Part shown: one piece after another, positions 16,228-43,405 of the stretch
Layout of the letters: every line of letters starts with the position of its first letter
Position numbering within the stretch: position 1 is the stretch's first letter
Assembly (NCBI GenBank): GCA_963805065.1
Contig: CAWDSS010000010.1
Location: 664,359-728,358, forward strand
Source: Candidatus Omnitrophota bacterium
Lineage (GTDB): Bacteria > Omnitrophota > Gorgyraeia > Gygaellales > Profunditerraquicolaceae
Length of the DNA: 64,000 bases
Reading direction: 5' to 3'
Made by a program: the position numbers and the translations under genes
The notes under the pieces: model-generated
Seen by the model: the letters and a program-made list of their open reading frames with translations, nothing else
Told to the model about the DNA's origin: nothing
Database searches by the model: none

Positions 16228-16237
16228 AGAAGATTGA

Positions 16238-17099
16238 ATGGAAAGAAAAGCCTTAGGCAAAGGAATCAGCGCTTTAATACCGGAAAGGCCGGAAAAGGAA
16301 TCAACTCATAGAACTGAGATTATATATGTCCAAACTGAGCAGATTAAGACAAACCCTTTTCAGCCGCGAGAAGATTTTGATACTCAGAGTATTGAAGAGT
16401 TGGCCCAGTCTATTAAAGAAAAGGGAGTGATCCAACCATTATTAGTGAGGCGAAAAGGCGATTCATACGAACTTATAGCCGGAGAAAGAAGGTTACGTGC
16501 TGCTAACATATTGAATTTAAAAGAGTTACCAATAATTGTCAAAGATGTAGAGGACCGCGATTCTTTAGAAATGGCTTTAATTGAAAATATTCAAAGGCAA
16601 GGGTTGAACCCGATTGAAGAAGCCCATGCTTATCAATATCTCATCGAGAAGTTTCAGGTCACCCAAGATAAAATCAGCGAGGTTTTGGGTAAGGCCAGGG
16701 TCTCTATCACTAATACTTTACGTTTGTTGAAATTGCCGCTGGAGGTGCAGGCAGAAATTAAGAAGGGGCGCATTTCTTTTGCCCACGGCAGGGCTTTATT
16801 AGAAATAGAAGACGCAAATCAGCAGCGCCGTCTTATGCAGGAAATTATTTCCAAGGATTTATCAGTAAGAGAGCTGGAGAATTTAATTAAGTCCCATAGG
16901 CCAAGGGGCATGAAGCGCAAGATAGGATTATCGCCCAGAGACCCTTCAGTGATGATTCTGGAAGAAGAGCTGCAGCATGTTTTGGCACCAAGGTAAGGAT
17001 AAGCAAAAGAAAAAAGCGCGGCCATATTTTAATTGAATTCTATTCCCAGGAGGAACTGGAGCGGATTATGAGCGTCCTGAGAGGAGGCAAGACCACATG
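16238..17099 (+). pseudogene. parB: chromosome partitioning protein ParB/Spo0J, single frameshift near 16984
   Basis: The ParB-box motif GERRLRAA is present. The ORF stops at 16996 (...LQHVLAPR*). The +2 frame continues with the canonical ParB C-terminus GTKVRISKRKKRGHILIEFYSQEELERIMSVL, ending at a TGA that overlaps the ndk ATG. One G appears to be missing in TTTTGG(G)CACC. Confidence 0.88.
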
Positions 17100-19361: not shown

Positions 19362-19901
19362 GTGGCCAGAGAAAAGAACATAATTTTAGGGGTAAGCGCC
19401 AGCATTGCAATTTACAAGGCTTGCGATATTGTGCGCAGGCTCAAAGACGAGGGGTTTTCTGTCAGCGTAATAATGACGCGCGAGTCAGAAGAGCTAATCA
19501 AGCCCATTGTTTTTCAGAGCCTGTCCGGAAACAAGACCTATACAGGATTATTCGAAATGCCCGAGACCTGGCAGATAGAGCATGTGTCCTTGGCTAAAAA
19601 AGCTGATTTGGTTTTACTGGCTCCGGCAACCGCCAATATTATAGCAAAAATTGCCGGGGGAATTTGCGACGACTTATTAACCTGTGTTATCTGCGCAACC
19701 CAGGCGCCTGTTTTAATCTGCCCGGCGATGAACGAGAATATGTATAAAAATAAAATTACCCAGGGCAACATTCTTAAACTTAAATCCTTGGGTTACAACT
19801 TTGTAGAGCCTAGGACAGGCAAGCTTGCTTGCGGAGAAACAGGCGTTGGCTGTTTGGCAGAGGCAGAGGCCATAATTAAAGAAGTTAAAAAGATTCTTTA
19901 A
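19362..19901 (+). CDS. coaC: phosphopantothenoylcysteine decarboxylase-type flavoprotein (CoaC domain only)
   Basis: 179 aa with ILGVSASIAIYKACDIVRRL...PAMNENM.... Only the flavoprotein (CoaBC N-terminal) half is present. Confidence 0.78.
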   Translation: MAREKNIILGVSASIAIYKACDIVRRLKDEGFSVSVIMTRESEELIKPIVFQSLSGNKTYTGLFEMPETWQIEHVSLAKKADLVLLAPATANIIAKIAGGICDDLLTCVICATQAPVLICPAMNENMYKNKITQGNILKLKSLGYNFVEPRTGKLACGETGVGCLAEAEAIIKEVKKIL

Positions 19902-19909: not shown

Positions 19910-19984
19910 GGCGACGTAGCCAAGTGGTAAGGCAGCTCTCTGCAAAAGAGCTATTCAGCGGTTCGAATCCGCTCGTCGCCTCCA
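19910..19984 (+). tRNA. tRNA-Cys (anticodon GCA), CCA encoded
   Basis: GGCGACGTAGCCAAGTGGTAAGGCAGCTCTCTGCAAAAGAGCTATTCAGCGGTTCGAATCCGCTCGTCGCCTCCA forms a perfect cloverleaf with anticodon loop CTGCAAA. Confidence 0.93.
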
Positions 19985-20142: not shown

Positions 20143-20817
20143 ATGCCTAATAAAAGAAAAGTTTTAAAAATTGAAGGAGCAAATCTTTGGTATTTGGTGG
20201 GGCTAATTGCAAGCGATGGATCTTTGTCTATGGATGGGAGACATATTAATATTACTTCTAAAGATGAGTTTTTTCTTAAGAAAGTTATCTTAATGACACG
20301 ACTTGAAAATAAAATAGGAATAAAAAATAAAGGTAAAATTAATCAGGCTTTTCAAATTCAATTTTCCAATAAAAACCTCTATGAATTTTTATTGTCGGTG
20401 GGCTTGACGCCAAAAAAATCTTTAAGTTTAGGCAAGTTAGATATTCCAAAAGAATTCTTTATCGATTTTTTAAGAGGTTTAATTGACGGGGATGGGTCCA
20501 TACGCAGTTGGATACATCCAACAAATTTACATGAGCAATGGTCATTAAGAATTTTTTCTGGCTCAAATGTATTCATAGCGTGGTTAAAGTCGCAAATAGA
20601 AGGATATTTTGGCTGTAAAGGTAAAATTCACTCAGCTCTTAGGCCTGAGCGAGAGAATTTGATTTACACTTTGAAATATGGCAAGATAGCTGCAAAAAAG
20701 ATTTTGAAAAACTGTTACTACAAAAATGCACTCGGTTTAGATAGAAAAACGCACTTAGCACAAAAATGCTGTTCTTCTTACGCTGGATGGCAACAAAGTA
20801 AAACAGTTTTTAATTAA
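20143..20817 (+). CDS. LAGLIDADG-family homing endonuclease (two-motif, monomeric type)
   Basis: 224 aa with two dodecapeptide motifs: LVGLIASDGSL (N-terminal half) and LRGLIDGDGSI (C-terminal half). Confidence 0.85.
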   Translation: MPNKRKVLKIEGANLWYLVGLIASDGSLSMDGRHINITSKDEFFLKKVILMTRLENKIGIKNKGKINQAFQIQFSNKNLYEFLLSVGLTPKKSLSLGKLDIPKEFFIDFLRGLIDGDGSIRSWIHPTNLHEQWSLRIFSGSNVFIAWLKSQIEGYFGCKGKIHSALRPERENLIYTLKYGKIAAKKILKNCYYKNALGLDRKTHLAQKCCSSYAGWQQSKTVFN

Positions 20818-20826: not shown

Positions 20827-20910
20827 GCCGGGGTGGCGAAACTGGCAAACGCACGGGATTTAAAATCCCGCGACCGTAAGGTCTTGTGGGTTCAATTCCC
20901 TCCCCCGGCA
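20827..20910 (+). tRNA. tRNA-Leu (anticodon UAA), long variable arm
   Basis: GCCGGGGTGGCGAAACTGGCAAACGCACGGGATTTAAAATCCCGCGACCGTAAGGTCTTGTGGGTTCAATTCCCTCCCCCGGCA. The anticodon loop is TTTAAAA. There is one T-T mismatch in the T stem. CCA is not encoded. Confidence 0.85.
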
Positions 20911-21049
20911 CTTGGACTCATAGCTCTAGTCCCGAAAACAGCAATGGATAAATGGCTGATTCGGGATTTCGCAGGGACACCGAATAAATCTAAGCCTTTG
21001 TCATTGGTTTACTAGGTGTTCGCTATGAGCATTAACAAGTTAGAGGTCT

Positions 21050-21132: not shown

Positions 21133-22862
21133 ATGGATTTAAATACTTTAAGACATTCTTGTTCACATGTAATGGCAGAAGCGGTAAAAGAGCTTTGGCC
21201 TGAGGTTAAATTAGGCATCGGTCCCTCCATTGAAGACGGCTTTTATTATGATTTTGATAAGAAAGAGCCGTTTACCGACGATGGATTTGGCCAGCATTGA
21301 AAAGAAGATGGCCGAGATTATTGCCAAGAATTCGAACCATTTATCAGGGAAGAGCTTGTCTAAAAAGGAAGCGACAGAGTTGTTTAAGAAACTAAAAGAA
21401 GATTATAAGATAGAGCTTATTCACGCAGATTCCCGATGAAAAAGTTTCTATTTATAAAACCGGTGATAAGTTTTTGGATTTATGCCGCGGCCCGCATATA
21501 AAATCTACTGGAGAGATAAAAGCCTTTAAATTGCTTATCGGTTGCCGGGGCCTATTGGCATGGCATAGAAACTAACCCCATGCTGCAGCGAATTTACGGC
21601 ACTTGTTTTGAAACCCAGCAAAGAACTAGAGGAGTATTTAAAAAATCTGGAAGAGGCAAAGAAGCGCGACCATAGAAAATTCGGCCCGGCATTAGAGTTT
21701 TTTGATATATATCATGAAGAGGCCGGCGCAGGCTTAGTATTTTATCATCCCAAGGGAGCGCTGTTGCGCACGATCATCGAGGACTATGAAAAAAAAGAAC
21801 ATCTTAAAGCGCGGTTATCAAATGGTAATCACTCCGCATATTATGCAGGCTGAACTTTGGAAGACCTCCGGGCACTATGATTACTACAAAGAGAATATGT
21901 ACACCCTTAAAATCGATGAGAAAGAGTATGTATTAAAGCCGATGAATTGCCCCGGCCACATCCTTGATTTATAAATCCAAAACCAGGAGCTATAAAGATT
22001 TACCAATCCGGTTTTTTGAACTAGGCACGGTTTACCGCCATGAAAAAGCAGGAGTATTGCACGGGCTGTTGCGCGTGCGCGGATTTACCCAGGATGATGC
22101 GCATATATTTTGCCTGCCCGAACAATTGCGCGAAGAGATAAAAGCCATTATAGATTTTGTGTTTGATACGATGAAGGTGTTTGGATTTAATGATGTAGGT
22201 ATTGAATTAAGCACGCGGCCGGAGAAATATATCGGCTCAGAAGAGGATTGGCAGAAGGCAACAGAGGCCCTGGAGGAGGCTTTGAAAGAAAAAGGCTTAA
22301 AGTATGATATTAATGTCGGAGAAGGGGCATTTTATGGCCCAAAAATAGATATAAAATTAAAGGATGCCTTAAAGAGATCATGGCAGTGCGCAACTATCCA
22401 GTGCGATTTTGCTTTGCCCAAAAGGTTTGATCTCGCCTATATTGATTCCGACGGCAAAGAAAAACAGCCGATTATGCTGCACCGGGTTTTATTGGGTAGC
22501 CTAGAGCGTTTTATCGGCGCGCTGATTGAGCATTATAATGGAGAACTGCCTTTATGGCTGGCTCCTGCACAGGTTTTGATTATCCCGATAAAGGACTCGG
22601 TTTTGGAATATGCAAAAGAAATAAAGAAGACCTTGAGGAAAATGGTATACGCGTGGAATTGATAACCGCAATGAAACTTTGGATAAAAGAATACGCAATG
22701 CCGAGCTGAATAAGATCCCTTATTTCTTAGTTGTAGGAGAGCGCGAAGCCAAAGCAAGAAATGTCTCGGTAAGAAAAAAAGGCAAAGGCGATTTGGGGGC
22801 AGTTGCCAATAGAGGAATTTATAGAACAGATAAAGCAACAGATCGATAATAAAGCAATATAG
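21133..22862 (+). pseudogene. thrS: threonine--tRNA ligase, frame broken by at least 7 frameshifts
   Basis: Collinear ThrRS fragments occupy different frames. They are 21133-21300 ([17 protein letters not shown]...GFYYDFD), 21230-21439, about 21440-21610, 21608-21853, 21786-21974 and 21964-22662 (class II core). The C-terminal anticodon-binding part runs to the TAG at 22860-22862. The gene starts 6 nt after tRNA-Val and has no TGS domain. Confidence 0.9.
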
Positions 22863-27134: not shown

Positions 27135-27162
27135 TTGACTAAATTATAATATGTGGTATAAT
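27135..27162 (+). promoter_or_regulatory. strong sigma70-like promoter with no ORF downstream
   Basis: TTGACT (27135-27140), 16 nt, TATAAT (27157-27162), directly after the pheT stop. Confidence 0.55.
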
Positions 27163-27169: not shown

Positions 27170-27356
27170 AAAAGGAAAAATAGCTCTTTTAGATTCCCTG
27201 CGGTGCGCGTTGGATATTCGATAATTGTTGAACCAACAGTAATTTAATGGGAACCCACAGATTCTTGGGCGCTTCGGCACTTAAGAGAGGGTACCCACCT
27301 GAAACCAAAACGGTTCAGACTGTCAATCCAACGGCACAATGCGGGGATTTTTTTTG
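27170..27356 (+). ncRNA. ~185-nt rod-like structured RNA, candidate 6S RNA (ssrS)
   Basis: It runs from the promoter above to a U8 tract (27348-27356). The 5' segment 27193-27215 (ATTCCCTGCGGTGCGCGTTGGAT) pairs with 27326-27347 (ATCCAACGGCACAATGCGGGGA). There is internal TGAACC/GGTTCA pairing and an apical hairpin with a UUCG loop (27263-27285). No ORF is present. Confidence 0.4.
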
Positions 27357-27492: not shown

Positions 27493-28836
27493 ATGGATCT
27501 TTTCGAAGAAAAAGAGATAAATCATAAAGATGCCCCCTTGGCTGTGCGCATGCGGCCTGCTAATTTAGATGAATTTGTAGGCCAAAGCCACATCCTGGGT
27601 AAAGGGAAATTGCTGCGCAGGGCCATAGAGGCAGACCGTTTAAGCTCTCTAATTTTGTTTGGGCCGCCGGGAGTCGGGAAAACCTCGCTTGCCTGGTGCA
27701 TTGCCAATGTGACCAAGTCTAATTATGTGGGGATAAATGCCACTACCTCAAACGTCGAGGAGCTAAGGCGGGTTATTGCCCAGGCTAAACTTAAAAAAAG
27801 TAACACCGGCGATAAAACCATTTTGTTTATTGACGAAATACACAGGTTTAACAAGGCCCAGCAGGATGTGCTTCTTCCGGATATCGAGGAGGGGAATCCT
27901 GTGCTTATCGGGGCTACTGTCCATAACCCGTTTTTCTCTATTGCCTCTCCGCTTTTGTCACGCTCGCTGGTATGCGAATTAAAAGCCTTAAAAGATAACG
28001 AGATACTTTTGATATTAAGCGCTGCTTTAAAGGATAAAACCAGGGGTTTAGGCAATTACAAAGTCAGGATGGATAAAAAAGCACTATCCTTTTTAGCTAA
28101 GACCTGCGAGGGAGATGCCCGACGTGCACTTAACGCCCTGGAGGTAGGGACGCTTACCACTCCTAAATCAAAAGACGGCTTTATAGACTTTTCTTTAGAA
28201 GTTGCCAGCGAATCAATTCAGAAAAAAGCCATAGTTTATGACCAGGATGAGGATGCGCATTATGATACTGCCTCGGCTTTTATAAAATCCATGCGCGGCT
28301 CTGACCCTGATGCAGCTTTATACTGGATGGCGAAAATGCTTTATGCCGGGGAGGACCCGCGTTTCATTGCCAGGCGCATATGCATTCTGGCTGCAGAAGA
28401 TGTAGGTAATGCCGATCCTCTTGCGCTTGTCCTGGCAAACGCTGCGTTACAAATTTCTGAATTTGTCGGCATGCCTGAGGCCAGGATTCCCCTGGCACAG
28501 GCGGTTATTTATGTTTCCTGTGCCCCGAAGTCAAACGCATCTTACCTGGCAATTGATAAGGCATATCAGGATATAGAACAAGACAGGGCTCAGGAAGTTC
28601 CCGACCATCTTAAAGACGCCCATTATCAGGGAGCGGAAAAATTAGGCCGGGGCATAGGTTATAAATATGCCCATGATTACGAAGGCCATTACGTAAAACA
28701 AAAGTATACCAAAAAAATTGTTAAATATTACGAGCCGACTGATATAGGCTATGAGGCGAAAATCAAGGCACGGCTGGAGAAATTGCGGCAAAGCAAGAAT
28801 CCAGAAAGTGTCGAGGATGTAAAGGAGGGCACATAA
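27493..28836 (+). CDS. rarA: replication-associated recombination protein A (MgsA/RarA AAA+ ATPase)
   Basis: 447 aa with Walker A GPPGVGKTS, Walker B FIDEIHRFNK and the MgsA C-terminal domain (...YDQDEDAHYDTASAFIKSMRGSDPDAALYW...). Confidence 0.92.
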   Translation: MDLFEEKEINHKDAPLAVRMRPANLDEFVGQSHILGKGKLLRRAIEADRLSSLILFGPPGVGKTSLAWCIANVTKSNYVGINATTSNVEELRRVIAQAKLKKSNTGDKTILFIDEIHRFNKAQQDVLLPDIEEGNPVLIGATVHNPFFSIASPLLSRSLVCELKALKDNEILLILSAALKDKTRGLGNYKVRMDKKALSFLAKTCEGDARRALNALEVGTLTTPKSKDGFIDFSLEVASESIQKKAIVYDQDEDAHYDTASAFIKSMRGSDPDAALYWMAKMLYAGEDPRFIARRICILAAEDVGNADPLALVLANAALQISEFVGMPEARIPLAQAVIYVSCAPKSNASYLAIDKAYQDIEQDRAQEVPDHLKDAHYQGAEKLGRGIGYKYAHDYEGHYVKQKYTKKIVKYYEPTDIGYEAKIKARLEKLRQSKNPESVEDVKEGT

Positions 28837-29246
28837 TGCAAAAATTAAAAATATTTTTCTGGGCGCTTGCCTCGATTTTAATAGTTTCTGTGGCGGTATT
28901 GGCTCAAGAAACGCAAGATGATTCCGGATATGCTGCGGGAACCATGACCACTCAGGAGGTTACTTCCGGAAAAAGTAACGTAGAAGTAGCTCCGGGAATG
29001 GGAGTGACAAAAATGGGGGCCGTAAGCATAGTTGGCCCAAAGGATATAAAAGTGCAAAAACAAGAAGGAAGGGTGATCTCAGAAGACCCCGCAGCATATA
29101 TGGGGAGAAAATTTGAGGCAATAGAAAGCCGGCTGGATAAAATTGAGCAGCAGCAAGAGGAGCTTAAGAAGGAGCTTGAGCAATTAAAACCTAAACCCCA
29201 GAATGCTAAACCTCAAGATAACTTAAAAGAAGGAGGAGCCAAATGA
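28836..29246 (+). CDS. secreted protein with C-terminal coiled coil (unknown function)
   Basis: 136 aa with signal peptide MQKLKIFFWALASILIVSVAVLA/QE and C-terminal IESRLDKIEQQQEELKKELEQLK. The start overlaps the rarA stop. Confidence 0.6.
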   Translation: MQKLKIFFWALASILIVSVAVLAQETQDDSGYAAGTMTTQEVTSGKSNVEVAPGMGVTKMGAVSIVGPKDIKVQKQEGRVISEDPAAYMGRKFEAIESRLDKIEQQQEELKKELEQLKPKPQNAKPQDNLKEGGAK

Positions 29247-29743
29247 ATAGAAAGTTAATGATTGCTGTATCAACTGCCATTGCTTTATTGGCTGTAGGTT
29301 GCCAGGCCAGCCAAAATAGGGCAGTTGAAGGAGGCATAATCGGCGGATTATTAGGCGGGGCAGCAGGAGGAATTATTGGCCACCAGAGCGGTCATGGCGG
29401 AGAAGGGGCTGCTATTGGAGTGGCAGCAGGCGCTGTTACAGGAGCTATCGTAGGCAGCCAAATACCTAAACAAGGACAACCTCAACCAGTAACTACAACC
29501 AGCGCTACTACCAGTGCCCCTACGGCAACGCCTCAAACAATCCAGGCAAATCAGGCTGCCAACCCCAATCAGATGAGCCTGCAGCAAATCCTAGATTTTA
29601 CCAAGCAAGGGGTTAATGAAAACGTGATTGTGGATAAAATCAGGCTTACCAATTCAAAGTTCAATTTAAGCCCCAGCGATGTTGATTCCCTGAAGCAGCA
29701 AGGCGTAAGTCAAAAGGTGATTGACGCTATGCAGGGAAAATAG
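29243..29743 (+). CDS. glycine-zipper lipoprotein
   Basis: 166 aa with lipobox LLAVGC and the glycine zipper [18 protein letters not shown]...[13 protein letters not shown]. It also has a T/P/Q-rich linker and a small C-terminal repeat domain. ATGA overlap with the upstream gene. Confidence 0.65.
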
Positions 29744-29756
29744 GAAGGAAACCTTA

Positions 29757-32700
29757 GTGAATATATTAATTCTGGCTGCCATAGGCACGGGTTTTGCTAT
29801 GATTGCCTATGCCGTATATTTAGTAATATTTTCCGCTGAGCCGGGCGCAGAGGCAAAGCCCAGAAAAAGGCAGCTTGTAAATTCGCAGGAGCAAAGGCTC
29901 GCCAGCCAGGAACAAAAAATCCAAGCCTTCCAGGAAGAAATTAATGTTTTAACCTCCGAGCTTAAAAAGGCAAAGGCTGATTTTACAAATAGCCAGAATG
30001 AATTTGAGGCAGTCAAGAAAAGGGCAGCAGAGTTAGAAACAGAAATAAGCAGGCGGCAGGAGTGGGTGGGTAAATCCGAGGGAATGCTTACCAAAGCCAA
30101 GGAAGAAAGCCTGGACCTGAAAAACAAATTCATTGCCAAAGAAAAAGAATTGCAAGACATATTTACCAAGAACGTAGCTGCGAATAAAGAAAAAATAGAG
30201 CTGGCAAAAAAGATAGAATCCTGGGAAAAAGACAGCGTAGCAAAAACCGACCAGATAGAGTCATTGAAACATAGGATTGAAAGCCTCAACCAGGAAATCA
30301 AAACCCGTCAGGAGACAATCGAAGCCTTCAAAAAGAAAGAAAAAATCAGCGAGTGGGTGCCAAAGCTAGAATTCAATAAGCTCAACGATGAATATACAGA
30401 ATTGGAAAAAGAACTGGAAGAAAAAGAAGAGAGGCTAAAGAGTTTTGCTGAAGAAATCATGCAGCTACGTAACCACCTGGAACATAAACCGCTGGCTCCT
30501 GTTAAGCCTGAGCCTGAAATCCCGCCTGAAGGACAAGAGGAGAAGAAAGATAAGCGCAAGGAAGAATTAGAGAGCCTGGAGTCAATTTTAGAGCATGTAG
30601 AAAAAGCCGATACGACCCTGCCGGAAAATGAAAAGATTGCAAAAGAAATTGAACCTGTGCAATTAGAAGAACCCGAGGCAAAAGAGAAGCCGGATGAAAA
30701 AGCGGTTAAGCCAAAGCCTGTCCCCCGAATCAGCTTAGACAAAGTGAGAAATATCGGAATCATGGCACACATTGATGCGGGCAAGACTACCTTATCAGAA
30801 AGAATCCTGTTTTATACAGGCCGTTCACATAAAATTGGCGAAGTGCATGAAGGCAAGGCGCAGATGGACTGGATGAAACAGGAGCAGGAGCGAGGCATTA
30901 CAATTACTGCGGCAGCAACTACCTGTTTTTGGAAAGACCACAGGATTAACCTAATTGATACTCCCGGACACGTTGATTTTACAGTAGAGGTGGAGCGCAG
31001 CCTGCGCGTACTCGACGGCGCGGTAGCAGTTTTTTGTGCCGTGGGCGGAGTTGAACCGCAGTCAGAAACCGTGTGGCACCAATCCAATAAATACAATGTT
31101 CCGAAAATCGCCTTTATAAATAAAATGGACCGCACAGGAGCGGACTTTTATGCGGTGTTAAAAAGTATCGAAGAAATATTAGGAGGTAATGTCATTCCTT
31201 TAGAGATACCCGTAGGCCAGGAAGATACCTTTAGGGGCGTAGTTGACCTTATAGAAATGAAGGCCTATATTTATGAAGAAGATTCTCAGGGAAAAGATTT
31301 TCGCATTGAAGAAATTCCCCAAGAACTCCAAGAGCAGGCGCAAAAATTACGCCACTTAATGATTGAAAGGGTGGCTGCTTTTGATGAAGCACTGACTAAA
31401 AAATACCTTGCGCAAGAAACATCCATAACCCAGGAAGAGCTTGTGCAGGTTATCCGTCGGGGAACCGTAGCAAACAAGATGGTCCCTGTGATGTGCGGCG
31501 CAGCTTTTAAAAACAAAGGCGTGCAGAAACTGCTGGATGCGGTAACCGCGTATTTGCCCTCTCCATTGGACCTCCCTCCTGTAAAAGGCCATGACCCCGA
31601 TGATCCGGAGAAAATTATCGAAAGAAAACCGGATATAAATGAGCCATTCGCTGCGCTGGCTTTTAAAGTGCAAGCCGACCCGCATATGGGTAAGCTGGTT
31701 TACGCAAGAATTTATTCCGGGATTCTGGATACGGGAACCTATGTTTTAAATGCCAGCAAAAATAAAAAAGAACGCGTAGGAAGAATCGTGCAAATGCACG
31801 CTAATCAAAAAGAAAATATTGAGTACGGTTTTTGCGGCGATATTGTGGCAATAATAGGCTTGAATAATACTATAACCGGCCATACACTTTGTGATCCTGA
31901 AAGCCCGGTGTTACTGGAAGCCATACAATTTCCTACTCCTGTAGTTTCCTTGAGTATTGTGCCCAAGACCAGAGCCGATCAGGACAAGCTGGGGAAAGCC
32001 TTGGGCAGGCTGACAGAGGAAGACCCCACTTTTATAGTCAGTAGCGACGAGGAAACCAAGGAAACCATACTTACCGGCATGGGTGAATTGCACCTGGAAA
32101 TTATCGTGGACAGGTTAAAGGTGGAATTCGGGGTAGAAGCGATTGTCGGCCAGCCAAAGGTAGCTTTCCGAGAAACAATTACTACTGCATCAGGGGCAGA
32201 AGGTAAATACATCAGGCAGACCGGTGGCCGCGGACAGTATGGTCATGTAGTGCTTGAGGTTTCGCCAAATCTTGCGGGCGAAGGTTTTAAATTCATTAAC
32301 AGCATTAAAGGAGGCGCAATACCCGCCTCATTTATCCCCTCGGTTGAAAAAGGCATTATTGAAGCCATGGGAAAAGGCGTTTATGCGGGTTATCCTGTGG
32401 TGGATGTTACGGTTAATCTTTTAGACGGCTCATTTCACGAAGTAGATTCTTCGGAGCTCGCATTTAAAATTGCCGCAAGCATCGGTTTTAAAGAAGCGTT
32501 TTTAAAAGCGCAGCCCATACTCCTTGAGCCGTATATGTCGTTAGAAGTTAATAGCCCCGAGGAATATGCCAACGCCTGTGTGGGTTACATCTGTTCCAAG
32601 AGAGGCAAAATCTTAAACATCGAAGTTAAGGCAAAACAAAAAATTATTTCCGCAGAGGTCCCGCTTTCTGAGATGTTCGGTTATGCCACCAACATCCGTT

Positions 32701-32813
32701 CTTTAAGTAGCGGCCGTGCCAACGCTACCATGGAATTCAACAAATACATGCAGGTGCCTGCAGAGATCGCCCAGAAAATCATCGAGGAAAAGAAGAAAAA
32801 AGAAGAGAGTTGA
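29757..32813 (+). CDS. elongation factor G paralog fused to an N-terminal TM helix and a ~330-aa coiled-coil/charged spacer
   Basis: The ORF is open from 29721 (TTG). The GTG at 29757 follows AGGAAGG by 7 nt. One hydrophobic helix ([23 protein letters not shown]) is followed by a long E/K/Q/L heptad-like region. From about residue 340 there is a complete EF-G ([29 protein letters not shown], domains II-V). Confidence 0.85.
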
Positions 32814-32838
32814 AATATTTTTATTAGGAGGTATAATA

Positions 32839-33390
32839 ATGGACATGAAAAAAATTTCTATCATATTAATAGCCGGGTTATTTTTATGGGCGCTTTCTAA
32901 AGGAGCTTCTAGCATGGATGAAAAAATAGTAGTTTTAGAAACATCTCAAGGAAAAATTGAGATTAAGCTTATGCCTGATATAGCTCCCAAGGCCTGTGAG
33001 AACTTTGAAAAATTAGTCAGCAAGGGTTATTATGACGGATTAATTTTCCATCGGGTAATAAAAGGTTTTATGATTCAGGGAGGCGATCCCACAGGAACCG
33101 GCAGGGGCGGGGAATCAATATGGGGCAGCACTTTTGAGGACGAGGTTACCCCTAACGTCAAATTTGACAGGCCCGGTATGCTTGCCATGGCGAACGCCGG
33201 ACCGAATACCAATGGCAGCCAGTTTTTTATCACCACTGCAAAAACTCCCTGGCTGAATATGCGCCACACAATATTCGGGGAAGTGATTTCAGGTTATGAA
33301 ACTGTCCAGGCCATAGAAGAGACTCCGACCGCAGAAGCCGATAGGCCTGTTACGGAACAAAAGATCATCAGAGCTTACTTAAAAAACTAA
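32839..33390 (+). CDS. peptidyl-prolyl cis-trans isomerase, cyclophilin type, with signal peptide
   Basis: Contains FHRVIKGFMIQGGDP...GSQFFIT. The ATG at 32839 follows GGAGG. The signal-like N-terminus is MDMKKISIILIAGLFLWALSKGASS. Confidence 0.88.
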   Translation: MDMKKISIILIAGLFLWALSKGASSMDEKIVVLETSQGKIEIKLMPDIAPKACENFEKLVSKGYYDGLIFHRVIKGFMIQGGDPTGTGRGGESIWGSTFEDEVTPNVKFDRPGMLAMANAGPNTNGSQFFITTAKTPWLNMRHTIFGEVISGYETVQAIEETPTAEADRPVTEQKIIRAYLKN

Positions 33391-33430: not shown

Positions 33431-35479
33431 ATGACACACAAAATCGACTATCTTAAAGAATTAAATCCCGCACAATTAACAGCTGTGCAGTCAACCGAAG
33501 GGCCGTTTTTGGTAATTGCGGGAGCTGGAAGCGGGAAGACACGCGTTTTGGTCCATCGCGTGGCTTACCTCGTTGAAAAAGGCATACAGCCTCAGGAAAT
33601 ATTACTGCTTACGTTTACGCGCAAGGCTGCCGAAGAAATGCTGCGGCGTGCATCATTGCTTCTGGACGAGCGCTGTTCAAAGGTGGCAGGCGGCACATTC
33701 CATTCCTTTGCCAACATAATTTTAAGAAAATATGCCAGCGTATTAGGGTTGTCTAATAACTTCACTATCCTAGATGAATCCGACTCCCAGGACACGGTTA
33801 ATTTAATCCGCACACAGCTAGGTTTTCACAAATCAGAAAAACGTTTTCCCAGAAAAAAAGCCATTACTGAATTAATTTCCAAGAGCGTGAATAAATCCGA
33901 GGATTTGGGAATTGTTTTGTATGACGAATACCCGCAGTTTATAGAATGGGAAGAAGAAATAAAAAAAATCAGGGATGAATACAATAAATATAAACGCCAT
34001 AAGTCGCTTCTGGATTACGACGACCTTTTGGTTTACTTAAAAGAATTGCTGGTAAAACATCCTGATGTCAGGTCAAGGCTCTGCGCGAGATATAAATATA
34101 TCATGGTTGATGAATACCAGGATACCAACAAACTTCAGGCATATATTGTCTGCCTCCTGGCATCAGAGCATAATAACATTATGGTTGTAGGGGACGATGC
34201 GCAGAGTATCTATTCTTTCCGGGGAGCTAATTTTAAGAACATCATTGAGTTTCCCAAGATTTTTAAGCAGGCCAAAATAATTACGCTGGAAGAAAATTAC
34301 CGCTCCACCCAGCCGATTTTAAATCTTTCCAATAGAGTAATCGCGCAGGCAAAGGAAAAATTTGAAAAAGAGTTGTTTACCAGGAAAAAGGGCAATAGCT
34401 TGCCGGTTTTTGTGGATGCGCGTGATGAGAACGCGCAATCCAAATACATCGCCGATAAAATACTGGAATTAAGGGAAGAGGGGTTAGAGTTAAGTAATAT
34501 CGCCGTGCTTTTCAGGTCAGGCTGGCACTCTAATGATTTGGAAGTGGAGCTTGCCTCAAGAAATATTCCTTTTGTCAAATACGGGGGGCAGAAATTTGTA
34601 GAAGCCGCGCACATCAAAGATGTTATCTCGTATTTGCGCATTGCTTATAATATGTTTGATGAGGTCAGTTGGCACAGGGCATTGTTGCTTATCCCCGGAG
34701 TTGGCCCAAAAACCGCTCAAGCGCTAATTAATGAAATGATGATTAATAAAAAAGGCCTGTCCTCAGATAGCAAGCTGGTTAAAAGCAAAGAGGGAATCGC
34801 TGAATTGCTGGAGCTTCTTAAGGGTGTTGAGATTAAACAGGCAAATCCCTCTAAGATTATCCAGATGTTCCTGAAGTATTACCAGCCGCTCTTAAAACAG
34901 AAGTATGATGACTTTAACAAGCGGCTTAATGATCTTGATTCCCTGTGCAGGATTGCTGCAAGGTACAAATCGGTAGAGGAATTTTTATCTGATATTGCCC
35001 TGGAGCCACCAGAGCGTAACATTATCGAGGCAGGCTTAAAAGACCATGATGATTCAAGGCTTACGCTTTCTACGATTCACTCTGCAAAAGGCCTTGAGTG
35101 GCACACGGTGTTTTTGATTTACGTTGCCGAAGGGTATATGCCTTCCTACCTTTCATTGGAAAATGAAGATTCCATCGAAGAAGAACGCAGGCTGTTTTAT
35201 GTGGCTTCTACTCGCGCAAAGGAAAACCTGTTTTTATTAAAACCGCATATTGACCGCTCTCCTAAAGGTTTTATGGATGAAGGGGGATCTGTGTTTACGC
35301 AAGTGTCGCGTTTCTTAGACGAGGGGAATATCATGGATAAGTTTGTGGATATTGAAACAACTCAAGACGCAGACAATTTTTTCGAAGACACGAATGATAA
35401 TGTCCAGGAACGGCTTTCGAAAAACAAAGACTTCCTTAACATCATGAAAGAGTACTTCCGCGATTTAGACGATTATTAG
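33431..35479 (+). CDS. UvrD/PcrA/Rep-family ATP-dependent DNA helicase
   Basis: 682 aa with motif I AGAGSGKT, motif II VDEYQDTN, motif ...VGDDAQSIYSFRGA..., and C-terminal ...STIHSAKGLEW...YVASTRAKE. Confidence 0.9.
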   Translation: MTHKIDYLKELNPAQLTAVQSTEGPFLVIAGAGSGKTRVLVHRVAYLVEKGIQPQEILLLTFTRKAAEEMLRRASLLLDERCSKVAGGTFHSFANIILRKYASVLGLSNNFTILDESDSQDTVNLIRTQLGFHKSEKRFPRKKAITELISKSVNKSEDLGIVLYDEYPQFIEWEEEIKKIRDEYNKYKRHKSLLDYDDLLVYLKELLVKHPDVRSRLCARYKYIMVDEYQDTNKLQAYIVCLLASEHNNIMVVGDDAQSIYSFRGANFKNIIEFPKIFKQAKIITLEENYRSTQPILNLSNRVIAQAKEKFEKELFTRKKGNSLPVFVDARDENAQSKYIADKILELREEGLELSNIAVLFRSGWHSNDLEVELASRNIPFVKYGGQKFVEAAHIKDVISYLRIAYNMFDEVSWHRALLLIPGVGPKTAQALINEMMINKKGLSSDSKLVKSKEGIAELLELLKGVEIKQANPSKIIQMFLKYYQPLLKQKYDDFNKRLNDLDSLCRIAARYKSVEEFLSDIALEPPERNIIEAGLKDHDDSRLTLSTIHSAKGLEWHTVFLIYVAEGYMPSYLSLENEDSIEEERRLFYVASTRAKENLFLLKPHIDRSPKGFMDEGGSVFTQVSRFLDEGNIMDKFVDIETTQDADNFFEDTNDNVQERLSKNKDFLNIMKEYFRDLDDY

Positions 35480-35638: not shown

Positions 35639-36694
35639 ATGAAAAGGTTTTTCTCTCTTTTATTATGCTTTTTTCTTATCTTTGAGCAAAGCTGTTTTGC
35701 TCAAGTCCTACCCATGCAGGCAATACCTTCTTGGTCAGCGCTTCCCAGCTTACGTTACCTAAGCGTTAACTCTGCTAACCCTTACAACTACTTTAACTTC
35801 CTCCTGGACAGAGGAGACAAACCTTTTACTAAAGACAGCCTTAACTTAGAATCAAAAAAGCTTATCAATTATTTCTTTTTAGGGCTTACCCTACCTAGTG
35901 AATCTCTCTGGGTAAACCTTCGGCCTGATGAGCCGGGAAAGATTACCTCGGATGAGCTGAGCTCGACTGACCTTGGCCGCATCCTGCTGGAAGAAGACCT
36001 GCGGCTTAAAAAGGATGGCGCCGCCTACCTTAATCCTAACAATCCCAAAGGCAAGGAATTCTGGGAGAAGCTTTATGCAGCTATCGGCAAGGACAAGCTA
36101 AGAAGGACAGGGATTACCACCTCAAACCGCATCTGGATAGTGCCTGATGAGGCAGTGGTCATGGAAACCGAAGACGGGGCATTTGTAGCCTCTGCAAAGC
36201 TAAAGGTACTCCTGGAGAATGACTATTTGAAAGCCAACCCCAAGGATGCCACCCAGGCATTGACCGAGAAGCTGATGAAGGAAATAATTCTTCCCTGCCT
36301 GGCTAAAGATGTCAATACCTCTTCTACCTACGCACCAGTGCGCCAGATTTATTACTCTCTTATCCTGGCAGAGTGGTACAAAAGGAAGCACAAAACCTCA
36401 AATGACGCCTATTCCTCATACATAAACAAAGGCTCAACCAAAGGCCTTGAGTCAACACTACCCTGGTCAAAACAGCAGATCTGGCAGGATTATTTAGTAT
36501 CTTACCAAAAGGGAGAATACAACCTTAAGTCTGACCTTTTTGGCTTAAAGAGGATGTACTTTAGCGGTGGGATGGATTTCGTACAATTAGGCAGCAGCCC
36601 GATAATCACAAAGCTACCTTCTCAAGCAGACTTAGCAAAACCACAAGAAAGCTTAACAACAAATCCCGAAAACATTCAGATTTTATATTCTTGA
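35639..36694 (+). CDS. secreted hypothetical protein
   Basis: 351 aa with signal peptide MKRFFSLLLCFFLIFEQSCFA/QV. I recognise no family motif. The leader is CA-rich with no Shine-Dalgarno sequence. Confidence 0.6.
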   Translation: MKRFFSLLLCFFLIFEQSCFAQVLPMQAIPSWSALPSLRYLSVNSANPYNYFNFLLDRGDKPFTKDSLNLESKKLINYFFLGLTLPSESLWVNLRPDEPGKITSDELSSTDLGRILLEEDLRLKKDGAAYLNPNNPKGKEFWEKLYAAIGKDKLRRTGITTSNRIWIVPDEAVVMETEDGAFVASAKLKVLLENDYLKANPKDATQALTEKLMKEIILPCLAKDVNTSSTYAPVRQIYYSLILAEWYKRKHKTSNDAYSSYINKGSTKGLESTLPWSKQQIWQDYLVSYQKGEYNLKSDLFGLKRMYFSGGMDFVQLGSSPIITKLPSQADLAKPQESLTTNPENIQILYS

Positions 36695-36815: not shown

Positions 36816-39800
36816 TTGACTAAACGTGAAGAGGCGCTCCAGTCTGAGTTTGGTTCATCAGCCAAAATCCAGCCTGAAAACACGGGCGCCTCTTCAACTA
36901 AGATCGCCGCCTCGCCGCTTAAAAAAGCTTTTGCAGAGCGATTAAAGGATCTTGGAATCGCAAGTCTGGGTGTTTTAATGTGGGTAACCGCTGCAGGCGC
37001 TCAGGATAACACTTTAGTGCCATCTAATCAACAGAATCCATACGTACTTAACACAAATTATAGCGATACTTTAAACGGCACTTATGCTAATGTCAATCTT
37101 GAATTGGGAAAGCATCTAATTTTGACCGTGGGAGCTCTTAAGGGCGCAGAAGAATCCGGTCCTTATGGTCCTTATGCAGGTTTTACCTTTAATACTGTTG
37201 AGTCTAGCCAAGACTTCTTTATGAAAGGTGGTTTTGAGATATCCATGTTTAATTATCAGAACGAGATAGCACAGCAAAATAGCAGTAATTTGTTTGTGGG
37301 GAGCGCAAACTATGCTGTGGCTAAACTCTTCCCTCTGACGAAGACAGTTGATATTACTGTTGGCGGTGCGGCTAGCGTTTCTGGGTCCTATACTAATTCC
37401 GGAAATGATATATCGGAAAACTGGAGATTCTTTAGCCCTCCGACTTTGGCAGGCAAAATTCTGTTAGGATGGAATATCTCTCCAGACAAAAGAGTCACAC
37501 TCGGCCTAGATACAACTGCCTACAATGAATTTACGAATGTCCAGAGTTACAGCATGGCATTTTTTCCATATTCTAAGTTAAGACTAGGGTATTCTACAAT
37601 ATGTCTTCTGGGAGTTCCAACCAATTTTGGGGCAAGCTACGGAGAAGGGCCGGGTTACGGGCGAATTTTTTCAATTGATACTAAAGGGTCGCCTACACCA
37701 GGAACCGACGTGGCAGTCGAATACCAGCAGGCAGACAAACCTACCTATGTTATTTTCCCTGAGGGCAGAAAAATAGGCCTAACTGTGGATAAACAGTTAA
37801 CTAGCAGAGAAGGAGGGCCAAGGTTCTCATTGACGGCTTCAGTGGAGAAGCTTATTTATGAATGGGGCGGCCATTCTCAAACAAATAGCACAGTAGGTTT
37901 TAAGTTAATCATCCCGTTTCAGCCAACTCGTAACCTAGGCGCGGGTATGTCCGTTGAAAAAGAGGTCGGAACTCCTTTTGTTGCTAACAACTATAAAATC
38001 ATTCCTTTTGAGTCTCCAGCAGCATTTTCTTTTGATGAACTAAAGCAGGCTTTGGAGACAATGTCTCCTGATGAGTTTGTAAATAATTTTCTGCGTAATC
38101 GTACTAAAGTTAAGAACTTGAATGATCTATTGCAATCAGTTGCGTATATTACAGATCAATTAGGCACATATAACTGGAGTGAAAAATCAGATCCGCTTTT
38201 TAAAGGTGTGAATATGCTTAATATTACTGACGCCCAGATGCTTAGTACTCTGGGGGAAAGCCTAAGAACTGGTGAACCAATACCAGCAGTAGTTTGTGCC
38301 GGCATATTTTCAGCAGGATCAGACTGGATTAATGCTGCTAGGTTGCCAGGGGTTTTTGCTTTTCAAGCTTCCGTGGAAGCGGGGCATCCACAAGGCGGCC
38401 ATATCATTACAGTAGTGGTTACTCCCAAAACAATTTATTTGGTGGATTACTTCCAATACAAAATCATAGATACGGGGACTCGTAATTCTGCAGAGGCCCT
38501 CGCCTTGTATGAACGGATACAACAAGGCGGCGATGCTGCTTTGACGCATGAGATTTTTTATAACAGAAAATTTATCGGGTTCGCCGGTGGTCCATTCGAT
38601 GACAACTATGGTTCACGCGATGGGGAACTTCTTAGAGATGCTCTGACTATCGATGGGGGAAAATCGGCGGATAAACTTTTGGAAGATGCGGTCAAGGCAG
38701 TTCAGCCTCCCTTAACTGTACCACAACAGCCAAAAGCGATAGAGCCATTAAAACCGAATATTAATCATGCACCTATTCCCGAAGTACATATGGTAGCCAA
38801 AAGCGCCTCTTCGACGATGCTCGATTTAGCTAACCTTGGTAAGGAAATAGCTGACAAGCTTATAAATTCAAAGTATAAATCCGATATCCGGGAAATCCTT
38901 AGGAAAGGAAATATTATTTCCTGGGGTAAATCGTTAAAAGAAATAGCTGATGAATTAGGGATAGTGATTCCTGATGGCACAGACTGGGAAAAGCTCTCAG
39001 AGAAGATTTGGCAGAATGCAATACTTAGACCGCAAGAAGTGGTTAGCAGGGCAAGGGAAGAGTTAGGAAAACAGCAGCGATTATTTAACTCAAGAGAGCA
39101 GCAAGAGCTATTTGCTCTTTACCCCGTTAATTTTAATGCGCCTTTGGGAACAGTACAAGATAAGGCATTGCTAAATACAGCATATGCAGGGTTGCTCTCT
39201 ATAGATGAGGCAAGGCGCATAGGTTATTCTGCAGGAGCCATTAAACAACTTGATGTGTCAAAACAATCAGAACTGGATAAATATGTAGAGGCTCCCGCAC
39301 AGCGGCTTGTAAAAGATATTATAGGCTTGGGTGGCATAACATATTCAAGCAATGCCTATGGCGATGGTCTTAAAGGCGTATTTTGGATAAAAAACAATAC
39401 AGAATATTTTACGCCTTTAACCATTGATGATTATAACATTGACGATATAACTCGTGAGTCTCTTGGGTTAATAAAATCCTCCGGCTCACCGTTGGATGCA
39501 AAAGGCGGCATCGACCTCTCCAAAATCGAACTCACGCTTAAAGATGAGAAATACATCTCAAGCCTCAGCCCTGCTGATGTAAAGGTGTTGCGTGCTGCCA
39601 AAGCCTTAAAAGACGGCTGGAACAGCCTATCGCTACTCTATGCGCATGAGGTAATGCTGATGCTAGAGGATAAGGTGGTGTTAAGCCTCAAGAATAAGCC
39701 AATGTTACAGGAAGTCCTTAACCAGCTTAACAGCAAAGAATGCTTAGACCCCCAAGGCCTCATCTTCTTACAAGCAATGCAATCACGCCTATCTACCCTT

Positions 39801-39824
39801 GAATTAGCCGCAGTTAAACCTTAA
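36816..39824 (+). CDS. large (about 1000 aa) envelope protein: putative beta-barrel N-terminal half plus a transglutaminase-like Cys-His-Asp region
   Basis: The ORF is open from the TTG at 36816 and the true start is uncertain. A signal-like segment reads LGIASLGVLMWVTAAGA/QD. Residues about 70-370 show alternating beta-strand patterning, ending ...VGFKLIIPF. Then VVC(494)AGIFSAG...RLPGVFAF...GGH(529)IITVV...YLVD(544)Y has papain/transglutaminase-like spacing. Confidence 0.6.
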   Translation: MTKREEALQSEFGSSAKIQPENTGASSTKIAASPLKKAFAERLKDLGIASLGVLMWVTAAGAQDNTLVPSNQQNPYVLNTNYSDTLNGTYANVNLELGKHLILTVGALKGAEESGPYGPYAGFTFNTVESSQDFFMKGGFEISMFNYQNEIAQQNSSNLFVGSANYAVAKLFPLTKTVDITVGGAASVSGSYTNSGNDISENWRFFSPPTLAGKILLGWNISPDKRVTLGLDTTAYNEFTNVQSYSMAFFPYSKLRLGYSTICLLGVPTNFGASYGEGPGYGRIFSIDTKGSPTPGTDVAVEYQQADKPTYVIFPEGRKIGLTVDKQLTSREGGPRFSLTASVEKLIYEWGGHSQTNSTVGFKLIIPFQPTRNLGAGMSVEKEVGTPFVANNYKIIPFESPAAFSFDELKQALETMSPDEFVNNFLRNRTKVKNLNDLLQSVAYITDQLGTYNWSEKSDPLFKGVNMLNITDAQMLSTLGESLRTGEPIPAVVCAGIFSAGSDWINAARLPGVFAFQASVEAGHPQGGHIITVVVTPKTIYLVDYFQYKIIDTGTRNSAEALALYERIQQGGDAALTHEIFYNRKFIGFAGGPFDDNYGSRDGELLRDALTIDGGKSADKLLEDAVKAVQPPLTVPQQPKAIEPLKPNINHAPIPEVHMVAKSASSTMLDLANLGKEIADKLINSKYKSDIREILRKGNIISWGKSLKEIADELGIVIPDGTDWEKLSEKIWQNAILRPQEVVSRAREELGKQQRLFNSREQQELFALYPVNFNAPLGTVQDKALLNTAYAGLLSIDEARRIGYSAGAIKQLDVSKQSELDKYVEAPAQRLVKDIIGLGGITYSSNAYGDGLKGVFWIKNNTEYFTPLTIDDYNIDDITRESLGLIKSSGSPLDAKGGIDLSKIELTLKDEKYISSLSPADVKVLRAAKALKDGWNSLSLLYAHEVMLMLEDKVVLSLKNKPMLQEVLNQLNSKECLDPQGLIFLQAMQSRLSTLELAAVKP

Positions 39825-41851: not shown

Positions 41852-43405
41852 ATGTTAAATATAATCATTTTTATCGGTATTGCCTTGGTTGCAACAGGCA
41901 TAGGTTATTTTTTAAGAAAGCACGTCGCGGAACAAAAGATTCAAAATGCGGAATTGCAAGCGCAGCATATTTTAGAACAGGCTAAAAAAGAAACACAGGA
42001 CAGGCGCCGTGAAGCCGAATTGGAGGCCAAAGATCTTCTTTACAGGATGCGCCAGGATTTTGAGCGCGAGACCAAAGACAGAAGGCAGGAAATTTCCAAC
42101 CTGGAGAAAAGGCTTACGCAAAAAGAAGAAAACATCGATAGGAGACTGGATTTATTAGAAAAGAAAGAAAAGGAAATTGAGGCAAGGCATGAAAACATCA
42201 AAAAGCAGGAAGAGGCGCTGAAGCTCAAGGATAATCAGTTGCATTTACTCATCGCCGAGGAAAAAGACAGGCTGCAAAAAATTTCCTCTTTATCGGCAGA
42301 AGAGGCAAAACAGATTTTGCTTAGCCGCCTTAACGAAGAATTGAATGCGGAAAAAGCCGTGTTTATAAAGAGGCAGGAAGAGGAATTGCGCAGCATCTCT
42401 GACAAAAAAGCCAGGGAGATTTTAAGCCTGGCAATACAAAGGTGTGCCGCAGAACATACCGTGGAATCTACCGTAAGCGTAGTAACGCTTCCTAATGATG
42501 AAATGAAAGGAAGGGTTATCGGAAGAGAAGGTAGAAATATCCGCGCACTGGAAATGGCCACGGGAGTAGACGTTATTATCGACGATACTCCTGAAGCAGT
42601 AACCCTGTCTGCCTTTGATACGGTGCGCAGGGAAATTGCGCGGCTTAGCCTGGAAAAACTCATTGCCGACGGCAGAATCCATCCCGGAAGAATCGAAGAA
42701 ATAGTGGAAAAAACCAAAAAAGAGATGGATGAAAAAATAAAAGAAGAAGGAGAGCGCGCGGCATTTGAAGCAGGGGTTAACGGCCTGCATCCTGAATTGG
42801 TAAAGCTTTTAGGCAGGTTAAAATACCGCACCAGCTTCGGCCAGAATGCGCTGCAGCACTCCAAGGAAGTTTCGTTTCTATTGGGCATGATGGCGTCTGA
42901 GTTAGGATTGGATTTTAAATTGGGCAGGCGTATCGGACTATTACATGATATAGGCAAGGCCGTAGACCATCAGGTTGAAGGCACCCATGCAAAATTGGGA
43001 GCGGACCTGGCGAAAAAATATAACGAGCTGCAGGAAGTAGTAGGCGCGATTGAGGCGCACCACGAAGAAACTCAGCCTCAAAGCTTGTATGCGGTATTGG
43101 CAGTGGCAGCAGATGCCATAAGCGCTGCCCGGCCAGGCGCCAGGCGCGAGACCTTAGAGACCTATATAAAGAGGCTGGAAAAATTAGAGTCCATTGCCAA
43201 CTTGTTTAAAGGCGTTGAGAAATCGTTTGCCATACAGGCAGGACGCGAAATACGCGTAATCGTGCAGCCGGAAAAAATCACGGATACGGATGCAGTAAAT
43301 CTTGCCCGCGATATAAGAAAAAAGATAGAGGAAGGCATGGAGTATCCCGGACAGATTAAGGTTACTGTAATTCGAGAGACAAGAGCGATTGAGTTCGCAA
43401 AGTAA
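41852..43405 (+). CDS. rny: ribonuclease Y
   Basis: 517 aa with an N-terminal TM helix, a coiled coil, a KH domain ([15 protein letters not shown]) and an HD domain (LLHDIGKA). Confidence 0.95.

Follow-up and report, generated by a model that had tools for sequence, protein, structure and literature searches.

A canonical elongation factor G with a predicted membrane anchor and stalk in Omnitrophota

The fused gene and its product

The 64,000-nucleotide stretch of DNA analyzed here (the window), from contig CAWDSS010000010.1 of the Candidatus Omnitrophota assembly GCA_963805065.1, carries on its + strand a gene in which a transmembrane (TM) helix and a long helical stalk are joined in frame to a complete elongation factor G (EF-G); we call its product the tethered EF-G. 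The reading frame is uninterrupted from 29721 to 32813. It is opened by a TTG at 29721, and the likelier start is the GTG at 29757, because a ribosome-binding site stands just upstream of it and, in an alignment of 20 homologues, the proteins begin at the residue equivalent to this codon. The gene and the parts of its 1018-amino-acid (aa) product are listed below with their window coordinates and, in parentheses, the basis of each assignment.

29742..29749, + strand: ribosome-binding site AGGAAGGA, 7-8 nt 5' of the GTG start (read from the sequence)
29757..32813, + strand: whole gene for the membrane-tethered EF-G, 1018 aa (open reading frame [ORF], Pfam, homologues)
29763..29831, + strand: TM anchor helix, residues 3-25, N-terminus outside (Kyte-Doolittle; AlphaFold helix 3-25)
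29832..29882, + strand: disordered juxtamembrane segment rich in lysine and arginine (K/R), residues 26-42 (predicted local distance difference test score [pLDDT] below 50; K/R enrichment)
29883..30353, + strand: stalk helix 1, residues 43-199, ~23 nm, holding conserved motif 1 (AlphaFold, pLDDT mostly above 90)
30354..30485, + strand: kink (SEWVPK) and stalk helix 2, residues 200-243, holding conserved motif 2 (AlphaFold, alignment)
30486..30725, + strand: disordered Glu/Pro/Lys-rich linker, residues 244-323 (pLDDT ~30)
30726..32810, + strand: complete five-domain canonical EF-G, residues 324-1018 (Pfam, TIGR00484)

In an AlphaFold model of the N-terminal 251 residues (mean pLDDT of 85), helices span residues 3-25, 43-199, and 203-243, with disorder at 27-42 and a three-residue kink between the two stalk helices, the second of which is ~6 nm long. 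Residues 3-25 are the sole hydrophobic segment in the whole protein (Kyte-Doolittle 19-residue maximum of 2.07), and the TM anchor is present in 112 of 120 homologues, the other 8 of which look like miscalled starts. Across the 120 homologues, the mean number of K/R residues was 0.10 before the helix versus 4.67 in the 20 residues after it. Under the positive-inside rule, this bias would place everything C-terminal to the helix in the cytoplasm, which supports an N-out/C-in topology. A cleavable signal peptide that exports the EF-G was ruled out, since the N-terminus has no positive N-region and the K/R residues follow the helix; an exported GTPase would also make no sense.

The stalk carries two tryptophan motifs that vary little or not at all in the alignment of 20 sequences: E96..R-R-Q-(D/E)-W103-V..K-S-E..L..K113 (motif 1) and K194..E199-W200-V-P-K203..F206-N-K-L-N-E212..E217 (motif 2). 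W103 and W200 are invariant, the motifs lie ~97 residues apart, and their conservation suggests that the stalk may have a binding partner. The stalk may itself be a dimeric coiled coil. The linker that follows is 53-103 aa long in the 120 homologues (median of 80) and variable in sequence, with a composition of 25.5% E, 17% P, and 11.5% K. A full-length AlphaFold model built with 20 sequences was poor (mean pLDDT of 49.5); it returned the same helices, with residues 243-325 disordered, and was uninformative on contacts between the stalk and EF-G. No Pfam family matched residues 1-328 above threshold, and Pfam, NCBIfam, and PDB profile searches of the N-terminal part gave only subthreshold generic coiled-coil matches (SMC arms, GCN4, keratin, and Lpp). 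We also considered an internal start that would yield a soluble EF-G and rejected it, as no conserved Met or Val is found where a canonical EF-G would begin and Pro323 and Leu327 are invariant there.

A first-pass annotation of this DNA had proposed five parts (a very short N-terminus, a hydrophobic helix with a K/R-rich flank, a heptad-like region, a Pro/Glu/Lys linker, and EF-G) with everything after the helix in the cytoplasm. Pfam, hydropathy, K/R counts, and AlphaFold agree with this architecture and topology and with the order of the parts; the lengths are revised, in that AlphaFold and the homologues give a stalk of about 200 aa rather than 290 and a linker of about 80 aa rather than 50. 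The anatomy of the tethered EF-G is secure.

The catalytic part is an EF-G by every measure applied. Residues 324-1018 match five Pfam domains, all above their cutoffs (GTP_EFTU at 329-602, D2 at 630-713, EFG_III at 725-798, EFG_IV at 800-919, and EFG_C at 922-1007), and the TIGR00484 equivalog model scored 1043.2 bits against a cutoff of 659.4, with model positions 5-691 of 691 covered. In a comparison with solved structures, Thermus thermophilus EF-G (1dar) gave 881 bits at ~62% identity, whereas the T. thermophilus EF-G-2 structure gave 397, TetQ ~390, and TetM/TetO 226. Models of other translational GTPases, including one for the EF-G2 of Bacteroidota, stayed below their cutoffs: the EF-G2 models NF009377 (506 bits against 890) and NF058620 (480 against 1000), the Tet protection model NF012153 (376 against 775), LepA (182 against 534), RF3 (256 against 473), TypA (211 against 757), and the Pfam domain RF3_C (31.5 against 40.1). 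The protein is not a divergent one of the EF-G2, ribosomal protection protein, or LepA type, and the earlier label of "EF-G paralog" is likely to hold for this genome.

In the 20 homologues, AHIDAGKTT (337-345), DTPGH(V)DF (401-408), NKMD (455-458), and GGRGQYGH (823-830) are invariant, and the G1, G3, and G4 motifs, the catalytic His405, the GGRGQYGH loop of domain IV, and the loop DGS(F/Y)H.VDSSE are all invariant or nearly so. The GTPase motifs and domain IV loops align with those of T. thermophilus EF-G, and the EF-G part appears both canonical and catalytically intact. Across Omnitrophota, the EF-G core is 74-81% identical to that of the window, compared with ~50-58% for pheT in the same loci, a level of conservation typical of a housekeeping protein. 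Canonical fusA typically, although not universally, lies in the rpsL-rpsG-fusA-tuf (str) operon, and the usual EF-G is a soluble protein of ~700 aa with no added domains. The present gene departs from both patterns, with rarA on one flank and cyclophilin/uvrD on the other and with a 323-aa N-terminal extension that includes a TM helix.

Distribution, gene neighborhood, and relatives without EF-G

In a search of 5.8 billion proteins, the 120 best matches, which we examined, were all 969-1042 aa long, and most covered 95-100% of the query at 63-81% identity. Matches to the fusion fall into more than 120 protein clusters and come from NCBI, JGI, ENA, and Logan assemblies. When GTDB species-representative genomes were scanned with a profile limited to the N-terminal part, 124 stretches matched, of which 80 were fetched for study. 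Nearly all of these are titled Candidatus Omnitrophota; the few that bear automatic "Planctomycetales" or other labels group among Omnitrophota loci in trees. An unbroken frame of ~990-1077 aa runs from the anchor through EF-G in 56 of the 80 Omnitrophota species genomes.

This survey of relatives, named in the first-pass annotation as a test that could refute the fusion, instead established that the junction is real. The other possibility was a chimeric join, a missed stop, or a frameshift that merged two genes in an error-prone assembly, and the window does hold frameshifted essential genes: gyrA is spread over three frames, and long ORFs cover gyrB and thrS only in fragments (4930-7365, - strand; 9186-9644, - strand; and 21964-22662, + strand). 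These breaks suggest assembly indel errors, possibly from long reads, rather than true pseudogenes. An artifact at the tethered EF-G would nevertheless have to recur as the same uninterrupted fusion in 56 independent species-level genomes and more than 120 clusters from several assembly sources, with conserved residues at the junction in the alignment of homologues. Cross-genome conservation rules it out for practical purposes, and we regard its probability as vanishingly small. The gene is a genuine fusion, specific to Omnitrophota and widespread there, and it appears to be under selection. One metagenome-assembled genome, MEGAHIT-group-0.826, holds two different tethered EF-G loci, L005 (JAZDPH010000052.1) and L068 (JAZDPH010000010.1), each behind its own pheT-rarA; this bin probably mixes two Omnitrophota genomes.

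Source databases label the fusion plainly as "elongation factor G," which leaves its distinguishing feature invisible in annotation. The first-pass annotation knew of no family with this architecture, and we found no account of one in the searchable literature on Omnitrophota/Omnitrophica, EF-G, membrane anchors, and coiled coils. Membranes, coiled coils, and N-terminal extensions all go unmentioned in a 2015 survey of translational GTPase subfamilies.

Of the 80 loci, 23 encode a shorter anchored protein of 230-414 aa, which stops after the anchor, stalk, and an acidic Pro-rich tail; no EF-G sequence or remnant was found anywhere within these loci. In 20 of the 23, the gene belongs to the same slot or the same clan, in the order pheT, rarA, anchor-stalk-tail, cyclophilin, uvrD. 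Gene trees of rarA and of the module (neighbor joining, midpoint rooted without an outgroup) both place the EF-G-less loci in one clade nested among fused lineages, with three (L021, L057, and L082) scattered outside it. The tail of these shorter proteins is similar to the linker of the tethered EF-G. Because the clade is nested and has kept this linker-like tail, the simplest reading of the trees is that the fused state is older and that one lineage lost the EF-G part. A C-terminal motif in some EF-G-less proteins, ENIEKKTKETE, has a vague likeness to the C-terminal tail of EF-G; we judged it too weak to serve as evidence of an internal deletion.

The N-terminal part belongs to a larger set of proteins, which we define by three features: an N-terminal TM helix whose flank follows the positive-inside rule, about 200 aa of helical stalk, and a pair of Trp motifs ~97 residues apart. 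The tethered EF-G has all of these, and the same motifs are visible in standalone members as ..(D/G)W.. and ..xWVxKxE(F/Y)xxL.. A profile of the module searched against 1.84 billion cluster representatives matched 340 at an E value of ≤1e-3 and 57 at ≤1e-30; among the 150 matches listed, most are standalone proteins of 150-420 aa. Standalone forms (e.g., P0121 and P0124) stop either after the stalk (225 aa) or after the acidic tail (230-414 aa). In the distant relatives of ~225 aa (e.g., P0217 and P0225), the TM helix and K/R flank are retained and the two Trp motifs are spaced as in the tethered EF-G; the tail is absent. Two of them, at L085 7001-7681 and L086 7001-7714, share a conserved gene context different from that of the tethered EF-G: SpoU methylase, HD, M48 peptidase, Hpt, a ~600-aa TPR protein (overlapping), the module, aminotransferase, dCMP deaminase, and response regulator. 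This context gave no functional clue.

In another relative, P0210 (724 aa), repeated stalk segments are fused to MshEN and PilZ domains instead of EF-G, so the module appears to have been joined to other cytoplasmic heads as well. The window has an MshEN-PilZ protein of its own, of the cyclic di-GMP receptor type (53903-54964, + strand), which is separate from P0210. The N-terminal part is an independent membrane coiled-coil family, undescribed in the Pfam, NCBIfam, and PDB libraries.

Around the fused gene, the window contains the following features; counts refer to 85 sources, comprising 84 loci (some of them duplicates) and the window.

27135..27162, + strand: sigma-70-like promoter match, TTGACT-16-TATAAT, 11/12 (consensus scan only)
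27192..27351, + strand: 6S RNA (ssrS), between pheT and rarA (Rfam RF00013, 62.7 bits against a gathering cutoff of 46.4)
27493..28836, + strand: rarA/mgsA, AAA+ recombination-associated ATPase (Pfam MgsA_C, 3.2e-69; 69 of 85 sources)
28836..29246, + strand: 136-aa protein with a signal-peptide-like N-terminus and a coiled-coil-like C-terminus (read from the sequence)
29243..29743, + strand: Gly-zipper lipoprotein with lipobox LAVGC (PF05433, 28.8 bits against 24.2; lipobox read from the sequence)
32839..33390, + strand: exported cyclophilin-type peptidyl-prolyl isomerase with a signal peptide (PF00160, 4.3e-54)
33431..35479, + strand: UvrD-family helicase (Pfam; 42 of 85 sources)

Conserved through many of these loci is the string pheS-pheT, 6S RNA, rarA, anchor gene with or without EF-G, cyclophilin, and uvrD, with pheT in 63 of the 85 sources. 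The place of 6S RNA in the string was checked in the window and eight related loci, both fused and EF-G-less. It lies just 3' of pheT in all eight (L003 6445-6602, L009 6544-6677, L012 3748-3907, L017 5425-5584, L020 6402-6560, L035 6416-6576, L038 6372-6532, and L048 6460-6619) and directly 5' of rarA in most, and pheT-ssrS-rarA looks like a phylum-level arrangement. The promoter match, ~30 nt 5' of the 6S RNA, may drive transcription of 6S RNA, rarA, and what follows up to and including the tethered EF-G gene. A scan found no terminator-like site on the + strand between this match and 32813, and the tethered EF-G may be cotranscribed with 6S RNA.

The tight packing and the identities of four neighbors (rarA, the coiled-coil protein, the Gly-zipper lipoprotein, and the cyclophilin) are as first annotated, with a 1-nt overlap between rarA and the 136-aa gene, a 4-nt overlap, and a 13-nt gap. 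The interpretation that the gene sits in an operon with envelope proteins was not supported by the comparison across loci, as most of these neighbors are local to the source genome. The 136-aa protein, which matches no Pfam or NCBIfam family above threshold, occurs in 2 of the 85 sources (the window and one other locus) and is a local insertion; the Gly-zipper lipoprotein gene immediately precedes the anchor gene in 12 sources, each of which has the fusion. The exported cyclophilin is the persistent, tightly abutting neighbor and the sole persisting envelope link. It is found in 36 sources, behind both fused and EF-G-less forms, at a median gap of 3 nt from the anchor gene and often with a 4-nt overlap, and its N-terminus is always signal peptide-like. 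The link to an exported prolyl isomerase is therefore real at the level of gene order.

Elsewhere, the window holds pyrB/pyrR, glmS, gyrA/B, dnaN, dnaA, yidC, parAB, thrS, pheST, RNase Y, dxs, gltX, and a prophage. The pair dnaA-dnaN (10229-12800, - strand) and the divergent yidC and parA-parB (13595-16996, + strand) place the replication origin region ~15-17 kb 5' of the tethered EF-G gene. Between tRNA-Cys (19910-19984) and tRNA-Leu(UAA) (20827-20911), shortly after a CoaC-only ORF (19362-19901), is a 224-aa ORF (20143-20817, + strand) that weakly matches LAGLIDADG homing endonucleases; it may be a free-standing homing endonuclease or the remnant of a mobile intron or intein. Just 3' of uvrD are ORFs of 351 aa (35639-36694, + strand, with a signal-peptide-like start) and 1002 aa (36816-39824, + strand), neither of which has a Pfam or NCBIfam match. 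An integrated phage-like element occupies ~55300-64000. It includes a large serine recombinase (55301-57088, - strand) whose 3' end overlaps tRNA-Gln (55361-55435, + strand), a helix-turn-helix protein, a ParB-N/DNA methylase fusion (59751-61055), and a gpA-type terminase large subunit (61584-63491).

Copy number and possible role

EF-G is essential, so the lineage that lacks the EF-G part must encode an EF-G elsewhere, and its ancestor for that reason probably had two EF-G genes; the EF-G at the tethered locus would then be dispensable in the EF-G-less clade. A 2026 preprint on 176 complete Omnitrophota genomes reports a contiguous S12-S7-EF-G-EF-Tu-S10-L3 order for 51 of its called loci, on chromosomes that include five given by name (bioRxiv 10.64898/2026.06.07.730766). 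Neither the window nor any of the 84 related loci around the tethered gene encodes S12, and no str operon lies within the 64-kb window. A single-protein scan of genome contigs for an Omnitrophota str-operon fusA returned nothing, and two viral-contig scans returned only EF-Gs of ≤55% identity from other organisms, together with one high-GC S12-S7-EF-G fragment. Published supplements give K02355/TIGR00484 as presence or absence only (PMC10066038) or have no EF-G entries (PMC12583861). On the strength of the EF-G-less clade and the preprint's S12-S7-EF-G-EF-Tu loci, the tethered EF-G is likely an additional copy beside a str-operon fusA.

Our preferred account, which we hold with middling confidence, is that the protein is a membrane-tethered, working EF-G, probably a second copy, that serves near-membrane ribosomes. 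A working factor is favored because the catalytic machinery appears intact. The EF-G part would carry out GTP-driven translocation and, with ribosome recycling factor, ribosome recycling, and the tether would hold it within a shell of ~30-60 nm beneath the cytoplasmic membrane. This reach follows from the stalk helices of ~23 nm and ~6 nm plus the 80-residue linker, which we estimate to span several nm on average and up to ~30 nm when fully stretched. Tethering would raise the local concentration of the factor for membrane-proximal ribosomes, for example, those engaged in cotranslational insertion or secretion. Most Omnitrophota cells measure ~0.2 µm (PMC10066038). In cells of ~200 nm, a shell of 30-60 nm would amount to roughly two-thirds or more of the cytoplasm, so that tethering need not limit EF-G to translocon-bound ribosomes. 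The reach, the activity, and the ribosomes served are all predictions from sequence.

Several points weigh against this account. A tethered factor that binds and leaves the ribosome at each codon would be kinetically unusual. The stalk module is kept without EF-G, which indicates a primary role of the stalk that is independent of EF-G. If the true root of the trees lies on the EF-G-less stem, the fusion is a single gain and the argument from dispensability is weaker. The second fusA of the source genome is one that we infer and have not seen, and rarA, uvrD, and 6S RNA have no obvious tie to membrane translation.

An alternative with the opposite view of copy number is that the fused gene is the sole, housekeeping EF-G, fusA having left the S12-S7 operon and become fused to the anchor, so that all translocation is membrane tethered. 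Such a role would suit a canonical equivalog core conserved at the level noted above, the inferred geometry leaves most of the cytoplasm within reach in ~200-nm cells, and a second EF-G has never been seen directly. We nonetheless find this decidedly unlikely: the S12-S7-EF-G-EF-Tu order is present in many Omnitrophota chromosomes according to the preprint, the clade that probably lost its EF-G part here must still have an EF-G, and the gene stands behind rarA without a strong promoter of its own, unlike what would be expected for a protein that must roughly match the ribosomes in number.

It is also unlikely, although less strikingly so, that the EF-G part is a ribosome-docking handle, for translating or hibernating ribosomes, or that the linker is cleaved and the fusion only couples synthesis. 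A mere handle would be expected to drift, whereas all catalytic and domain IV residues for GTP hydrolysis and translocation are invariant; likewise, there is neither a conserved cleavage motif nor a conserved internal start at the junction, where P323 and L327 are invariant. What speaks for a handle or for cleavage is that the anchor-stalk module, with conserved motifs of its own, persists without EF-G, as if it had an independent function to which EF-G was added, and that the linker is long, disordered, and in principle accessible to proteases. The position of the gene 3' of 6S RNA, in the window and in all eight loci tested, points the same way, as 6S RNA is a stationary-phase regulator in model bacteria. 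More ambitious, and to our minds improbable, is the idea that these cells have a translation zone close to the membrane, marked by the tethered EF-G, its stalk, and the tightly coupled exported cyclophilin; in the extreme version, the tethered protein is the sole EF-G. A translocase held at a fixed distance from the membrane would keep ribosomes moving during the cotranslational threading of secreted and membrane proteins, and among the cargo could be the giant (10,000-100,000-aa) surface proteins that are a known feature of Omnitrophota. Under the extreme version, all protein synthesis would be membrane organized.

If the preferred account of a tethered, working EF-G is true, a canonical EF-G held at the membrane throughout a phylum would mean that bacterial elongation can be spatially organized, at least in cells about ten ribosome diameters wide. 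It would offer a natural system for asking how much diffusion EF-G needs, whether membrane-bound ribosomes gain from a dedicated pool of factor, and how nanobacteria with giant secreted proteins sustain very long cotranslational export. The membrane coiled-coil family with conserved Trp motifs is likewise new.

Comparison with known systems

In the textbook description, EF-G diffuses freely and comes to the ribosome once for each codon. With canonical EF-G (FusA, TIGR00484; the T. thermophilus protein 1dar and that of Escherichia coli), the tethered form shares the full set of domains G/G', II, III, IV, and V in residues 324-1018. It differs by the 323 aa that add a TM helix, a coiled-coil stalk, and an acidic tether, by a gene position behind 6S RNA and rarA, and by a product predicted to be membrane bound rather than freely diffusing. 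Its likeness to EF-G2/EFGII, spdEFG1/2, gcEFG2, Tet(M)/(O), LepA/EF4, RF3, and BipA is that of a probable extra translational GTPase beside the main EF-G. Those paralogues and relatives are divergent in sequence and lack a TM anchor, whereas the catalytic part of the tethered form is not divergent; membrane association of LepA has been reported in E. coli. The novelty lies wholly in the appended anchor, and the tethered EF-G is a real, conserved, phylum-wide variant of EF-G that is undescribed in the literature found.

Parallels to the anchor come from unrelated proteins. RNase Y is likewise a cytoplasmic enzyme of RNA metabolism held by an N-terminal TM helix and a coiled-coil-like segment (PF12072), and the window encodes a typical one (41852-43405; PF12072, 3.6e-59). 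The two are unrelated in sequence, PF12072 not being among the Pfam matches of residues 1-328 even at an E value of ≤0.1, and the tethered EF-G has a longer stalk, with an extended disordered tether after it. ZipA and TonB-type tethers combine a membrane anchor with a charged or Pro-rich spacer and a globular head. The tethered EF-G resembles them in its N-terminal anchor, charged juxtamembrane region, Pro/Glu/Lys-rich spacer, and globular domain, and Pfam, NCBIfam, and PDB profile searches detected no homology to them. The TonB spacer is periplasmic, and the ZipA head binds FtsZ, not the ribosome. The standalone anchor-stalk proteins of Omnitrophota (e.g., P0121 and P0124) have the same TM helix, K/R flank, stalk, and Trp motifs and no EF-G, and one clade of them occupies the gene slot of the tethered EF-G.

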